The translations under genes and the position numbers were made by a program. A stretch of DNA of 64,000 nucleotides from Bacillota bacterium (GTDB lineage Bacteria; Bacillota; Clostridia; Christensenellales; CAG-138), in assembly GCA_023409435.1 (NCBI GenBank), contig JAEYHP010000156.1:2959-66958 (forward strand), read 5' to 3'. The notes beneath the pieces are model-generated. The model was not told where the DNA came from. It did not search any database and saw only the letters and a list, made by a program, of their open reading frames with translations. Of the stretch, positions 14,104 through 19,716 are shown piece after piece; position 1 is the first letter of the stretch, and every line of letters starts with the position of its first letter.

Positions 14104-14109
14104 TTGCGT

Positions 14110-14290
14110 GAAAAATGAATATCGGGAACAGGTCATGGAAGTTGGGTGAAAATCCCGCGCAAGGCCGTTGCTGTAATTTGCCGAAGGGTTCGGGCATATG
14201 TCACTGAGGGAATTCCCTCGGGAAGGCGCCCGAAAACCGCGCGCCCTGTTAGGGCGCAGGCGATAAGCCAGAATACTTGCCTGTATCCCT
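14110..14290 (+). promoter_or_regulatory. Cobalamin riboswitch
   Basis: It contains GGGAACAGG...GGGTGAAAATCCC (14144-14156), GCTGTAA, GTCACTG, GGGAAGGC and the B12 box AAGCCAGAATACTTGCC (14265-14281) in canonical order. Confidence 0.85.
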
Positions 14291-14388
14291 GCCGCATGGA
14301 ATGCGGCGTGTTCGGCTCTGCGGACCTCCGGAGCAATGGATATCGGCACAATCGTCTTTGGCGTATTCTCCATGTGTGCCTTTTTCAT

Positions 14389-14417
14389 GCCCGTTCGCAG
14401 TGCGAACGGGCTTTTTG
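14389..14417 (+). terminator. Intrinsic terminator (riboswitch expression platform)
   Basis: The hairpin is GCCCGTTCGCA-g-TGCGAACGGGC followed by TTTTT. It ends 65 nt upstream of the cbiK-like start codon. Confidence 0.8.
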
Positions 14418-14482
14418 TATTGTCCGCCCATACGCGGTTCCCGTGTGGGCGATGGCAAATAAACAATATGGAGGAAAAACAA

Positions 14483-16423: not shown

Positions 16424-17562
16424 AACGGTTTTTATCCCTCGCGCTTTGCTGTTTGCTTTTGCTGCCTTTCGCTGCGGGCTGTACCAAAAGCGCGCAGGGC
16501 AACAATAGAGACCTAGGCAACGGATGGCAAGCAGAGCGAAGCATGGCGCTCGAATATGCCACGCAATTTTCCGTGGACTATTACGAGGGCAGCTACAAAC
16601 TCATCTGCCTATCCGATGGCAGCCGGTTTCTGACCGTGCCGGAGGGTGCAGAAATTCCCGAAGGCCTCGACGCGGATATTACGGTGCTGCGTCAGCCCAT
16701 CAAGGATATTTACCTTGTCGCTACCTCCGCCATGTGCCTGTTCGACGCGCTGAATTCGATTAGCGCCATCAGCCTTTCCGGCACGAAGGCGGAGGACTGG
16801 TACAGCGTGAACGCCCGTGCGGCCATGGAGCAGGGCAGCATCCTCTATGCGGGCAAGTACAGCGAACCCGATTATGAGCTGATTTTATCGAGCGACTGTT
16901 CTCTGGCTGTCGAATCCACCATGATCTCCCACACGCCGGAGGTCAAGGAAAAGCTCGAGGATCTGGGCATTCCCGTGCTAATCGATCAATCCAGCCTTGA
17001 AAAGCACCCCTTGGGCAGGACGGAATGGCTCAAGCTCTATGCCGCGCTCCTCAATAAGGAAGGCGAAGCCGAACGCCTTTTTGACGATCAGATCAAATTC
17101 TTGGGCGAGGCAGCAAGCAAGGAGAACACGGGCAAGACCGTGGCGTTTTTTTACATCAGCACGTCGGGTTACGCCGTCGCGCGAAAGTCCGGCGACTATG
17201 TCACAAAGATGATCGAGCTTGCTGGCGGCAATTATAGTTTCAGCGGCCTTGGCGACCCTGAAACCGCCACCTCCACGGTCACGCTGGAAATGGAAAAGTT
17301 CTACGCGACCGCCAGGGATGCGGACTTCATCATCTACAACAGCAACATAGGCGGCGAGCTACAAAGCCTCGGCGAGTTGACCACGAAAAACGAGCTGCTG
17401 AAGGATTTTAAGGCCGTGCAGAACGGGAACGTCTGGTGTACGAATAAAAACCTGTTTCAGGAAACGACACAGCTCGGGCGAATGATATTGGATATCAACC
17501 GTATGCTTACAAACGACGACCCCGCACTTACGAAGCTCAATTTCCTGTATAGGCTCCAATAG
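16420..17562 (+). CDS. ABC substrate-binding lipoprotein, FecB/BtuF (cluster A-II) type
   Basis: I trimmed the track ORF to the ATG at 16420. The N-terminus is MKRFLSLALCCLLLLPFAAGC (lipobox). The body resembles a siderophore/cobalamin periplasmic-binding-protein fold. Confidence 0.8.
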   Translation: MKRFLSLALCCLLLLPFAAGCTKSAQGNNRDLGNGWQAERSMALEYATQFSVDYYEGSYKLICLSDGSRFLTVPEGAEIPEGLDADITVLRQPIKDIYLVATSAMCLFDALNSISAISLSGTKAEDWYSVNARAAMEQGSILYAGKYSEPDYELILSSDCSLAVESTMISHTPEVKEKLEDLGIPVLIDQSSLEKHPLGRTEWLKLYAALLNKEGEAERLFDDQIKFLGEAASKENTGKTVAFFYISTSGYAVARKSGDYVTKMIELAGGNYSFSGLGDPETATSTVTLEMEKFYATARDADFIIYNSNIGGELQSLGELTTKNELLKDFKAVQNGNVWCTNKNLFQETTQLGRMILDINRMLTNDDPALTKLNFLYRLQ

Positions 17563-17575
17563 AGAAAGGAACGGC

Positions 17576-18601
17576 ATGGAAGGCACCGAAGAAAAGCCGC
17601 GTGCAAGGTTTTGGATCGTTTTGTTTGCGCTGCTTGCCGCGTTTTTCATTTTAATATGCCTCAATGTGATGCTGGGCAGCGTGCAGGCGCCCGTTTCGGA
17701 CACACTCCGCATCCTGTTCGGGCGCGGCGGCGATGCGCTTTACAGCGACGTCATTTATAAAATAAGGCTCCCGCGCATGCTCGCGGGCGTCCTTTTGGGC
17801 GGCGCGCTCGCGCTTTCGGGCTTCTTGCTGCAGACGTTTTTCAACAACCCCATCGCGGGGCCGTATGTGCTCGGCATTTCCTCCGGCGCGAAGCTGACGG
17901 TAGCCCTCGTGATGGTGCTAATACTTGGTGCGGGCAAAAGCGTAAGCTCCGTGGCGCTCATCGGTGCGGCTTTTGTTGGCGCGATGCTTTCCATGGGCTT
18001 TGTGCTTTTGCTTTCGCAGAATATTCGTCGCTCGGCCATGCTTATCGTCAGCGGCGTGATGCTCGGCTACATCTTTTCCGCCATTACGGATTTTATCGTC
18101 ACATTCGCGGACGACGCGAGCATCGTAAACCTGCACAACTGGTCGCGCGGCAGCTTCTCCGGCGTTTCGTGGGACGACGTACGGGTGATGGCCGTGGTTG
18201 TTCTCATCACCTCGCTTCTCGTGTTTTTCCTTTCCAAGCCCATCGGCGCGTATCAGCTTGGGGAAAGCTACGCCAAGAGCATGGGCGTGAACGTAAAAGC
18301 GTTCCGCTTGGCGCTCATCCTGCTTTCGAGCGTGCTTTCCGCCTGCGTGACCGCTTTTGCGGGGCCGATCTCCTTTGTGGGCATCGCCGTACCGCATCTT
18401 GTGAAGGCGCTTTTGAAAACCTCGCGCCCGCTCCTTGTAATACCCGTATGCTTCCTGGGCGGCGCAATATTCTGCCTTGTCTGCGACCTGATCGCGCGGA
18501 CGCTGTTTTCCCCGCTGGAGCTTAGCATCAGCTCCGTGACAGCGGTGTTCGGCGCGCCCGTCGTCATTGCCGTGATGCTCAAAAAGCGCGCGAGGGATTG
18601 A
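17576..18601 (+). CDS. FecCD/BtuC-family ABC permease
   Basis: 341-aa ORF with multiple TM helices and the family-typical pattern RLPRMLAGVLLGGALALSG...FNNPIAGPYVLGISSGA. Confidence 0.9.
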   Translation: MEGTEEKPRARFWIVLFALLAAFFILICLNVMLGSVQAPVSDTLRILFGRGGDALYSDVIYKIRLPRMLAGVLLGGALALSGFLLQTFFNNPIAGPYVLGISSGAKLTVALVMVLILGAGKSVSSVALIGAAFVGAMLSMGFVLLLSQNIRRSAMLIVSGVMLGYIFSAITDFIVTFADDASIVNLHNWSRGSFSGVSWDDVRVMAVVVLITSLLVFFLSKPIGAYQLGESYAKSMGVNVKAFRLALILLSSVLSACVTAFAGPISFVGIAVPHLVKALLKTSRPLLVIPVCFLGGAIFCLVCDLIARTLFSPLELSISSVTAVFGAPVVIAVMLKKRARD

Positions 18602-19716
18602 GCATGGACTACTTCTTTTCCAGCAAACAGCTGGCCGTGGGCTACAACGGCAAGCCGCTCATCAGGGATATCGAGATACGGCTTCAAAAAGGTCGCATCC
18701 TGACGCTCATCGGTCCCAACGGCTCGGGCAAGTCTACGATTTTACGCAGCATCACCAAGCACCTCAAAAGCATCGCCGGTACGGTGTACATCGGCGGGCG
18801 CTCCATTGCGGATATGAGTGACCGCGACTTTTCCTACCGCATATCCGTGGTGCTGACCGAAAGACTTCGCACGGAGCTTATGACATGCGAGGAGATCGTG
18901 GAAGCGGGGCGCTACCCCTATACGGGCGTTCTTGGTATCCTCTCCGACACGGACAGGGCCGCAGTGCGCGAGGCCATGGCGCTTGTAAACGTGACGGATC
19001 TAAAAGACCGCGACTTCATGCAGATCAGCGACGGGCAGCGCCAGCGGGTGCTGCTTGCGCGGGCCATCTGCCAGCAACCCAAGATCATCGTGCTGGACGA
19101 GCCGACCTCGTACCTGGATATCCGCTACGAACTGGAACTTCTCGACATCCTGCGCGATATGGCGCGGGAACGGGGCATAGCCGTAATCCTATCCTTGCAT
19201 AACCTAAATTTGGCGCAGCGCGTTTCGGACGATGTGCTGTGCGTCAAGGGCGAACATATTTCCCATTACGGCAACGCAAGCGATATTTTTCGCCGTGACC
19301 TCATCCACGAGCTTTACGGTCTTACGGATGGCAGCTACAATCCGCTGTTCGGAAGCGTCGAATTGAAGCGGCCCGAGGGCGAGCCGCGCGTGTTCGTGGT
19401 CGCAGGCGGCGGCACGGGCGCCGAAGTTTACAGGACGCTGCAAAAAAAACGTATCCCCTTCATCACGGGCATACTCCACGAAAACGACGTCGACTATCAG
19501 GTGGCGCGGGACCTCGCAAGCGAGGTCATCAGCGAAAAGAGCTTCCATGCCATTTCGGACGCCGCCTATGCGCGCGCGCTCGAAAAGCTCCGCGCATGCG
19601 ACACGATGCTAAACTGCCTCACCGAATACGGCGAGACCAACCTAAAAAACCGCGCGCTTTACGAGGAAGCGAAGGCGATGGGGTGCAAGGTGGTTGGTGA
19701 AGTGGAGGAACTGTAA
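18598..19716 (+). CDS. ABC ATPase (FepC/BtuD type) with an extra C-terminal domain of about 115 aa
   Basis: It has Walker A GPNGSGKST, the signature ISDGQRQRV and Walker B IIVLDEPTS. Residues from about 255 to 372 have no ABC counterpart. Confidence 0.88.
   Translation: MSMDYFFSSKQLAVGYNGKPLIRDIEIRLQKGRILTLIGPNGSGKSTILRSITKHLKSIAGTVYIGGRSIADMSDRDFSYRISVVLTERLRTELMTCEEIVEAGRYPYTGVLGILSDTDRAAVREAMALVNVTDLKDRDFMQISDGQRQRVLLARAICQQPKIIVLDEPTSYLDIRYELELLDILRDMARERGIAVILSLHNLNLAQRVSDDVLCVKGEHISHYGNASDIFRRDLIHELYGLTDGSYNPLFGSVELKRPEGEPRVFVVAGGGTGAEVYRTLQKKRIPFITGILHENDVDYQVARDLASEVISEKSFHAISDAAYARALEKLRACDTMLNCLTEYGETNLKNRALYEEAKAMGCKVVGEVEEL

Follow-up and report, generated by a model that had tools for sequence, protein, structure and literature searches.

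Six genes behind a cobalamin riboswitch

In a stretch of 64,000 nucleotides from contig JAEYHP010000156.1 of a Bacillota bacterium (hereafter the window), a six-gene module lies on the forward strand behind a cobalamin riboswitch. It encodes an exported homologue of the chelatase CbiK, two paralogous surface proteins predicted to be divergent NEAT domains, and the binding protein, permease and ATPase of an ATP-binding cassette (ABC) importer, and it may supply an early tetrapyrrole from the cell surface to cobamide synthesis. The riboswitch matched the RF00174 model over its entire length (1-189/189) with 61.9 bits against a gathering threshold of 31.5 (E-value 6.6e-13). The module comprises the following features:

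14074-14103, + strand: sigma-70-like promoter, TTGACA-18-TATGCT with a TG extension, by consensus match only, directly 5' of the riboswitch
14115-14298, + strand: cobalamin riboswitch, RF00174
14389-14421, + strand: intrinsic terminator, 10-bp stem at 14389-14411 (8 GC pairs) and U-tract; presumed expression platform of the RF00174 riboswitch
14483-15352, + strand: gene 1, CbiK-type class II chelatase lipoprotein, 289 amino acids; ribosome-binding site GGAGG; lipobox VAAG/C (Cys24)
15427-15909, + strand: gene 2, lipoprotein with a divergent NEAT-like domain (A), 160 amino acids; lipobox FSS/C (Cys21)
15914-16423, + strand: gene 3, secreted NEAT-like domain (B), 169 amino acids; signal peptide, C-terminal hydrophobic helix and basic tail
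16420-17562, + strand: gene 4, substrate-binding lipoprotein, Peripla_BP_2 (E-value 3.8e-30), cluster A type, 380 amino acids; lipobox AAG/C
17576-18601, + strand: gene 5, FecCD permease, 341 amino acids (E-value 4.8e-82)
18604-19716, + strand: gene 6, ABC ATPase (ABC_tran) with a C-terminal MJ0874-type domain, 370 amino acids, or 372 if the TTG at 18598 is the start

All elements of the riboswitch-led six-gene unit described in an earlier note on this DNA were present where it had placed them. Small corrections apply to its open reading frames: gene 2 begins at 15427 and not within 15271-15424, and the long frames given as starting at 14336, 15271 and 16105 extend real genes in the upstream direction. 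The gaps between genes 1 to 6 measured 72, 4, -4, 13 and 2 (or -4) nucleotides, and this tight spacing makes a single transcription unit plausible. The terminator is located between the aptamer and gene 1, 72 nucleotides 5' of the start codon, a position that fits a riboswitch expression platform and predicts gating of all six genes.

An exported chelatase linked to corrin-ring genes

Gene 1 matched CbiK (PF06180) over profile positions 3-260/262 with 288.1 bits against a cut-off of 26.2 (E-value 7.8e-86), and together with the lipobox this full-length match agreed with the earlier description of a lipoprotein with a complete CbiK fold. The NCBIfam equivalog NF047852 was matched with 267.9 bits, under its cut-off of 400, and gene 1 was therefore assigned to a distinct exported subfamily. 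Among solved proteins, it was similar to Salmonella enterica CbiK (1qgo, E-value 4e-54), Porphyromonas gingivalis FetB (9b86, 1e-48) and Desulfovibrio vulgaris CbiKP (2xvx, 6e-42). Its residues His175, Glu206 and His238 aligned with the catalytic, metal-binding His145, Glu175 and His207 of S. enterica CbiK. This His/Glu/His set was invariant in 59/59 distinct exported CbiK orthologues, with about 80 further positions conserved at 95% or more. A lipoprotein-type N-terminus was found in 70 of 78 CbiK orthologues, and gene 1 carries a signal peptide, unlike the cytoplasmic CbiK of the anaerobic B12 pathway. The exported CbiK keeps an intact chelatase site, from which cobalt insertion into sirohydrochlorin can be predicted only. 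In Coriobacteriia, the exported CbiK shows a twin-arginine motif MSDQMSRRGFMGAAA... followed by the lipobox (L035-L084 of Collinsella, L047 and L049; for example L048 4927-5020, where L denotes a homologous locus), and it would be a lipoprotein exported by the twin-arginine route, secreted folded and possibly ligand-loaded. The Clostridia proteins instead have a Sec-type lipoprotein signal.

To place the module in a wider context, one genome per species was scanned. As a result, at least 571 genomes were found with a relative of gene 2, and the best 80 loci, a sample biased towards close relatives and Collinsella, were analysed. Searches by tblastn with the six window proteins recovered the order 1-2-3-4-5-6 in nearly all 80 loci, and a circular permutation (3-4-5-6-1-2) in four. 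The carriers belonged to Clostridia (Feifaniaceae, Christensenellales, Oscillospiraceae, Anaerotruncus, Roseburia, Ruminococcus, Blautia and Peptococcaceae) and to Coriobacteriia (Collinsella aerofaciens, Ellagibacter and Eggerthellaceae), and Syntrophobotulus glycolicus DSM 8271 had the same six genes behind an RF00174 element. Since the order recurs in nearly all loci and the riboswitch precedes the Clostridia-type ones, the arrangement is not a product of chance. Neighbouring genes were also fused: CbiK with domain A in one lipoprotein (L087 and L088), A with B (proteins P0020, P0088, P0183 and others), and B with the Peripla_BP_2 binding protein (P0264, P0286, P0300 and P0339). A single lipoprotein with two complete CbiK domains was found in L018 and L032. 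Although adjacency of genes makes such fusions more likely, they show that the components work jointly and on one side of the membrane.

The co-occurrence of exported CbiK with RF00174, a survey that the earlier note had proposed, held for the Clostridia-type loci and fell below threshold in Coriobacteriia. Thirteen loci were tested first, and in 9 of them the element lay, at the gathering threshold, just 5' of the module's leading gene; L087 and L088 had it as well. With an nhmmer model built from the RF00174 matches, the riboswitch was detected in virtually every Clostridia-type locus whose upstream DNA was long enough. Neither the Rfam gathering threshold nor nhmmer yielded a match in the Coriobacteriia loci. 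An initial statement that these loci have no B12 element was softened, as cobalamin-like elements of lower score were present: a conserved core GGGAACCAGGTGGGAATCCTGGGC ... AGCCAGACTGC about 350 nucleotides 5' of cbiK scored 16-19 bits for RF00174, and at the corresponding place L013 and L023 scored 29-30 bits for RF01482. Short elements resembling the cobalamin core 5' of cbiK, at 16-30 bits, were located at L048 4673-4800 (about 40 Collinsella loci are alike), L047 4458-4535, L031 4545-4648, L013 1843-1969 and L023 4759-4834. They are probable, but unproven, divergent B12 elements and may represent a compact aptamer variant. In L015, a skipping-rope RNA (RF02924, 74 bits; 3285-3366, - strand) and an extra RF00174 copy (2869-3041, - strand) are located 5' of the riboswitch that belongs to the module, on the strand opposite to it.

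The genetic context tied the module to corrin-ring synthesis, a link that the earlier note had not seen. In L087 and L088, a single riboswitch heads a packed co-directional string of genes for a CbiK-A fusion, B, the binding protein, the permease, the ATPase, CbiA, CbiC, CbiD, one or two methylases, CbiG, the methylase CbiH and CbiJ, and no other chelatase was seen in these strings. The module diverges from ring operons in the window, in L085 (on a 2-Mb contig) and in Collinsella. The ring operon of L085 and the window contains cbiD, methylases, cbiG, cbiJ, cbiET and cbiA, and the Collinsella flanks encode a methylase, cbiD, cbiG and a second methylase; neither cbiK nor cbiX was seen in the ring operons of the window and L085 or in the Collinsella flanks. 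Ring genes lay within 6 kb of the module in 14/36 Clostridia-type loci and 35/45 Coriobacteriia loci. Given this tight link, the likely cargo shifts from finished B12 to an early tetrapyrrole. The general direction of the earlier proposal, corrinoid or corrinoid-precursor capture or metal exchange at the surface, was supported. The features facing the module in the window are as follows:

14052-14023, - strand: promoter-like site of the cbi operon
13943-14022, - strand: divergent AdoCbl-II riboswitch, RF01689, 36.9 bits against a gathering threshold of 36.5, which it barely passes
13842-13817, - strand: terminator of the AdoCbl-II riboswitch, heading the cbi operon
3-13813, - strand: cobamide biosynthesis operon divergent from the module, 15 genes (cbiD-cbiF-cbiG-cbiH-cbiJ-cbiET-cbiA-cobT-cobU-cobS-cobC-cbiB-cobD-cbiP-cbiC), running past the window start (cbiC 578..3)

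Two cobalamin riboswitch classes (RF00174 and RF01689) are thus placed back to back within 175 nucleotides. Within the part of the cobamide operon that the window covers, cbiK/cbiX and cbiL were absent, and such genes may lie beyond the window start; no second cbiK, and no cbiL, was found elsewhere in the 64-kb window. At another locus (L086, 3730-7192, - strand, on a 1.6-Mb contig), a NifH-NifD-like fusion (Fer4_NifH and Oxidored_nitro) and a second Oxidored_nitro protein adjoin the module. These Nif-like proteins resemble tetrapyrrole reductases of the CfbCD/DPOR type, and a DUF3786 protein is encoded downstream.

The same linkage touches a group of bacteria that Shelton et al. defined as 'tetrapyrrole precursor salvagers' (PMC6461909). 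According to Supplementary Table 10 of that work, Collinsella aerofaciens ATCC 25986, Collinsella sp. 4_8_47FAA and C. tanakaei need precorrin-2: they have no hemA/L/B/C/D or precorrin-2 synthase, and their ring and loop pathways are complete (PMC6461909). Many Clostridia of gut and rumen stand on the same list, among them Faecalibacterium prausnitzii, Gemmiger, Coprococcus comes, Dorea longicatena, Clostridiales bacterium R-7 and numerous Lachnospiraceae, and no transporter is known for the precorrin-2 salvagers (PMC6461909). The C. aerofaciens genomes that bear the module are those of other strains than the one in Table 10, so the Collinsella link holds at the species level.

Acquisition of cobalt alone would be another way to serve a neighbouring cobamide pathway. 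Co2+ would then be captured by CbiK and its partners, perhaps bound to a tetrapyrrole carrier that is recycled, and the importer would supply cobalt much as CbiMNQO or CbtAB do. Three points speak for this possibility: cobalt transporters are often under the control of B12 riboswitches, CbiK would bind Co2+ through its conserved His pair, and cbiMNQO was not seen beside the ring operons in the window, L085, L087 and L088. However, importers of the FecCD/Peripla_BP_2 type carry chelates rather than free ions, and the two NEAT-like domains, of a tetrapyrrole-binding type, would be idle; a cobalt-only role is accordingly considered improbable.

Two predicted NEAT domains and a type II importer

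Genes 2 and 3 were confirmed to be paralogous, as the earlier note had recognised, with one protein lipid-anchored and the other carrying a C-terminal helix. BLASTP gave 33% identity over 94 amino acids (E-value 2e-7), hhalign of the two family profiles with fusion proteins removed gave 99% probability (E-value 2e-19 to 3e-22), and the export signals agreed. A first profile-profile comparison (A1 against A2) was uninformative and was discarded, because fusion proteins in A1 had brought in the B domain. In the database clustered at 90% identity, gene 2 had 613 relatives and gene 3 had 3994, all without a Pfam domain and, except for a few generic labels, unnamed or 'hypothetical'. The two window proteins themselves had no Pfam match, including NEAT (PF05031, gathering threshold 32.8 bits) at an E-value of 0.1 or below.

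The family, which the earlier note had not recognised, could be assigned from predicted structure. AlphaFold models were confident, with a mean predicted local distance difference test score (pLDDT) of 88.9 for gene 2 and 86.7 for gene 3, the latter with a helix at 135-164. In Foldseek searches of the PDB, the gene 2 model was closest to Hbp2-N2 (4myp), IsdX1 (3sik) and Shp (2q7a), with an E-value of 2.6e-4 and target-normalised template modelling (TM) scores of 0.60-0.65. The gene 3 model matched IsdX2-N5 (4h8p, E-value 6.8e-5) and IsdX1 (TM 0.72), with TM scores of 0.67-0.72 overall. The top 40 matches of both models were nearly all NEAT or Shp proteins, including IsdA, IsdH-N3 and IsdB-N2. 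Both proteins are thus modelled as an eight-stranded immunoglobulin-like beta-sandwich that is superposable on solved NEAT domains. In profile searches, the top PDB match of gene 3 was IsdX1, with ...GGSGRASVESPA... aligned on the lip ...ESSRMNRYFESPA..., at an E-value of 0.22 that alone is not significant. Weak Pfam NEAT matches occurred in 24/60 relatives of gene 3 and 22/61 relatives of gene 2, and were the commonest weak match. An exhaustive gene-3 profile search (E-value 1e-3 or below) gave 1667 clusters at 50% identity. One relative, P0242, scores 55 bits for Pfam NEAT, above the threshold of 32.8, exactly where the gene-3 profile matches it. By predicted fold, weak Pfam matches and this one threshold-passing relative, genes 2 and 3 are identified as putative divergent NEAT domains.

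Their binding sites differ from the canonical one. In canonical NEAT domains, haem iron is ligated through a lip 3-10 helix and the YxxxY motif on strand beta-8. Where the last strand begins, gene 3 instead has an invariant His114-x3-Tyr118, and gene 2 an invariant Trp-Tyr-Asp-Arg with no second Tyr. The Arg of the lip (Arg43 in gene 3, Arg61 in gene 2) aligns with Arg54 of IsdX1. No LPXTG or NPQTN sortase signal, usual but not general among NEAT proteins, is present; gene 2 has its lipobox, and gene 3 has the hydrophobic helix and basic tail. A semi-conserved KPLxGG(T) precedes the helix and basic tail in many gene-3 relatives (16330-16423 in the window), a layout like that of a cell-wall sorting signal without the LPXTG. 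Other gene-3 relatives are free secreted proteins of 130 amino acids, have a lipobox of their own, or are built of as many as five repeats. Those with at least three repeats reach 883-1605 amino acids (P0240, P0241, P0250 and P0327), like the multi-NEAT haem receptors. At least four tandem copies of domain A follow cbiK in L010 (3706-5975), and a lipoprotein of 442 amino acids (P0275) combines a carbohydrate-binding-type domain (Cthe_2159) with a C-terminal domain B.

Genes 4-6 constitute the complete set of a type II ABC importer, namely Peripla_BP_2, FecCD and ABC ATPase. The earlier term BtuFCD-like was appropriate for this set as a class-level label only, and it did not hold at the equivalog level. 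The best NCBIfam model for gene 5 was BtuC, with 198.6 bits, below the cut-off of 334, and that for gene 6 was the ATPase of an archaeal corrinoid ABC transporter, with 202.9 bits, below the cut-off of 537. Against the PDB, the family profile of gene 4 was closest to Listeria Lmo2184 (5joq, E-value 3e-7), and BtuF was not among its matches at an E-value of 1 or below; phmmer with gene 4 alone gave no PDB match, so that the family profile was needed. Lmo2184 is a haem-type relative that we take to be encoded in the srtB/Hbp NEAT locus of Listeria. Residues ~250-370 of gene 6 form an MJ0874-type domain (PF27219) that was kept in every Pfam-annotated homologous locus (L001, L003 and L085-L088).

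Precedents and a candidate route for tetrapyrrole capture

The NEAT identity of genes 2 and 3 implies that the module is built like an Isd/Hbp haem relay. In the Isd, Hbp (SvpA) and Shp-Hts systems, surface receptors with the NEAT beta-sandwich likewise pass a tetrapyrrole to a lipoprotein binder and a FecCD importer; multi-repeat relatives occur as in IsdH and IsdX2, and the binding protein is nearest to Lmo2184. An Isd-like role in haem or iron acquisition, with haem bound by the NEAT-like proteins, bound or dechelated by CbiK, and haem or iron taken by the importer, would draw on the predicted fold, on that binding protein and on the haem binding of FetB and CbiKP. Several differences stand against it, however. 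The window has a B12 riboswitch rather than Fur control, lipid or helix anchors rather than sortase attachment, and a chelatase in the set; YxxxY is replaced, by HxxxY in B, and is absent in A. Neither a sortase B gene nor a haem-degrading enzyme was found in the window or in loci L001 and L085-L088, no haem oxygenase gene was seen in the loci, and LPXTG is lacking. The cobalamin riboswitch is kept 5' of the module across Clostridia, with sub-threshold elements of the cobalamin clan elsewhere, and the module is embedded in cbi operons.

The haem reading is further weakened by the best-studied relatives. The earlier note had set the B12 regulation of this module against precedents associated with haem and iron, and this contrast did not survive, as both precedents are tied to cobalamin riboswitches in the literature. 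In P. gingivalis ATCC 33277, the only cobalamin riboswitch lies in front of PGN_0704, a gene for a TonB-dependent receptor that adjoins ihtB (PGN_0705); co-transcription was shown, and mRNA and protein were lowered by coenzyme B12 (PMC3422912). The gene ihtB is also fetB, PG0669 and PGN_0705 (PMC10913741), and from the consecutive locus tags we infer that PGN_0704 is ihtA. The iht operon itself did not respond when iron or haem was withheld, and Fur does not regulate IhtB (PMC12094164, PMC10913741). FetB is located at the surface and inserts Co and Mn into deuteroporphyrin in vitro, and it did not dechelate haemin (PMC13065792). P. gingivalis is described as having the corrin pathway without precorrin-2 synthesis. 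The cbiKP gene of Oleidesulfovibrio alaskensis follows one of the two cobalamin riboswitches of that species, and a link of cbiKP to such a riboswitch was reported there for D. vulgaris too (PMC11124144). The pairing of exported CbiK with B12 control therefore appears general, and haem or iron acquisition is regarded as highly improbable for the module.

The Iht locus begins, like the module in the window, with a cobalamin riboswitch, and it likewise has an exported CbiK homologue next to a binding protein, a FecCD permease and an ATPase. It differs in belonging to a diderm, in having the TonB receptor IhtA where the window has NEAT-like proteins, and in its description as a haem/iron system. 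Desulfovibrio CbiKP shares export and the intact chelatase site, but is a periplasmic, haem-binding, oligomeric protein of a diderm without NEAT-like partners. HmuS, BtuS1 and BtuS2 of Bacteroidota also place a chelatase-family protein in a tetrapyrrole uptake locus, some with a cobalamin riboswitch (PMC6460266); these are, in contrast, class I CobN-type proteins, proposed as haem dechelatases, with no sequence kinship to CbiK. Two further candidates were rejected: Bacteroides BtuK as a CbiK relative, which consists of a PKD domain and a beta-propeller, and 'operon-2' of Dehalobacter restrictus as a described equivalent, which has CbiZ, CobN and Mg-chelatase genes without CbiK or NEAT-like genes. 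In the Iht/FetB and CbiKP literature examined, no paper reads these proteins as a corrin-supply route.

Ordinary corrinoid scavenging deserves more weight and holds a substantial minority share of the probability. The importer would take complete cobamides, cobinamide or cobyric acid as BtuFCD does, and the NEAT-like proteins and CbiK would be non-catalytic receptors, a Gram-positive counterpart of the BtuG/H/J/K relay. Control of a type II ABC importer by a B12 riboswitch is the classic signature of corrinoid uptake, and the best NCBIfam models for the permease and the ATPase, both below cut-off, point the same way. Many loci have no adjoining ring genes, and the conserved His pair could bind the cobalt of a corrin. 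Multi-protein surface cobamide relays are found in Bacteroides, where BtuB/G/H/J/K and BtuFCD combine a riboswitch-controlled type II importer with several surface lipoproteins; BtuG, BtuH, BtuJ and BtuK are, however, neither NEAT-like nor CbiK-like. Against this stands the strict conservation of the whole chelatase site in all 59 orthologues; moreover, no chelatase apart from the exported CbiK was seen in operons with a full ring pathway. The presence of the module in predicted precorrin-2 salvagers also speaks against scavenging, as do the NEAT pockets and the Lmo2184-like binder, which would fit a smaller planar tetrapyrrole.

Surface capture of a tetrapyrrole at the level of sirohydrochlorin, with external cobalt insertion followed by import, is the reading favoured here, tentatively and with slightly less than even confidence; what the readings weighed here leave over belongs to any other explanation. 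Four points favour it: conservation of the chelatase site is strict, no chelatase besides the exported CbiK was seen in complete ring operons, predicted precorrin-2 salvagers are among the carriers, and the NEAT pockets and the Lmo2184-like binder point to a planar ligand. Such pockets and such a binder would suit a planar metallotetrapyrrole of ~600-900 Da better than a 1.3-kDa cobamide with its nucleotide loop. A B12-repressed system would thus acquire the tetrapyrrole at the cell surface and feed it to the cobamide pathway. The NEAT-like proteins would take up an early planar tetrapyrrole, namely sirohydrochlorin (oxidised precorrin-2) or possibly its iron form, siroheme, and the surface CbiK, which would need no ATP, would insert Co2+. 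Cobalt-sirohydrochlorin would then pass from CbiK to A, to B and to the binding protein for import, a cargo and direction of hand-off that we infer, and would join the anaerobic pathway in the cytoplasm at CbiL. When B12 is replete, the riboswitch would terminate transcription.

A broader reading moves cobalt insertion outside the cell. The system would then be the missing uptake route of precorrin-2 salvagers, and the same function would be what Iht/FetB of P. gingivalis and CbiKP of Desulfovibrio really serve. This reading is quite possible, though short of probable. It includes a variant, held no more firmly, in which CbiK swaps the iron of siroheme for cobalt. Prospectively, it would cover the listed Faecalibacterium, many Lachnospiraceae and Megasphaera.

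Several considerations weigh against capture of an early tetrapyrrole. No ring gene lay within 6 kb in 22/36 Clostridia-type loci, for example those of S. glycolicus and Anaerotruncus, and co-linearity does not identify the cargo, since B12 operons commonly carry corrinoid or cobalt importers. The best model for the ATPase (gene 6) is that of a corrinoid transporter, and the catalytic His pair could equally ligate corrinoid cobalt. Cytoplasmic CbiK/CbiX or hem/cysG genes may sit elsewhere in module-bearing genomes, including that of the window organism. We know of no documentation of free sirohydrochlorin in gut or sediment. For all members, cargo, binding, transport and chelation are deduced from sequence. 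The siroheme variant in particular is weakened because FetB showed no dechelatase activity with haemin (PMC13065792).

As the earlier note had suspected, no described system of this composition was found in the literature searched, nor any work that combines NEAT with a cobalamin riboswitch or CbiK with NEAT. The parts are all of known classes; their combination, the NEAT-like subfamily and an extracytoplasmic chelation step are undescribed in that literature, and a September 2026 review called Gram-positive extracellular cobamide capture 'entirely uncharacterized'. By the estimates of PMC6461909, ~86% of bacteria use cobamides and ~37% are predicted makers. As its CbiK domain is ordinary, genome-based predictions of B12 producers may count the exported protein as a cytoplasmic chelatase. 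The module occurs in at least 571 species genomes, including those of abundant human-gut taxa such as C. aerofaciens, Anaerotruncus, Roseburia, Ruminococcus and Blautia. It is a candidate for a Gram-positive relay that captures tetrapyrroles or corrinoids through members of a new, large NEAT-like family, for the transporter of the precursor salvagers, and for an extracytoplasmic chelatase step. Furthermore, it suggests that Iht/FetB of P. gingivalis, long treated as a haem/iron system, belongs to B12 metabolism.

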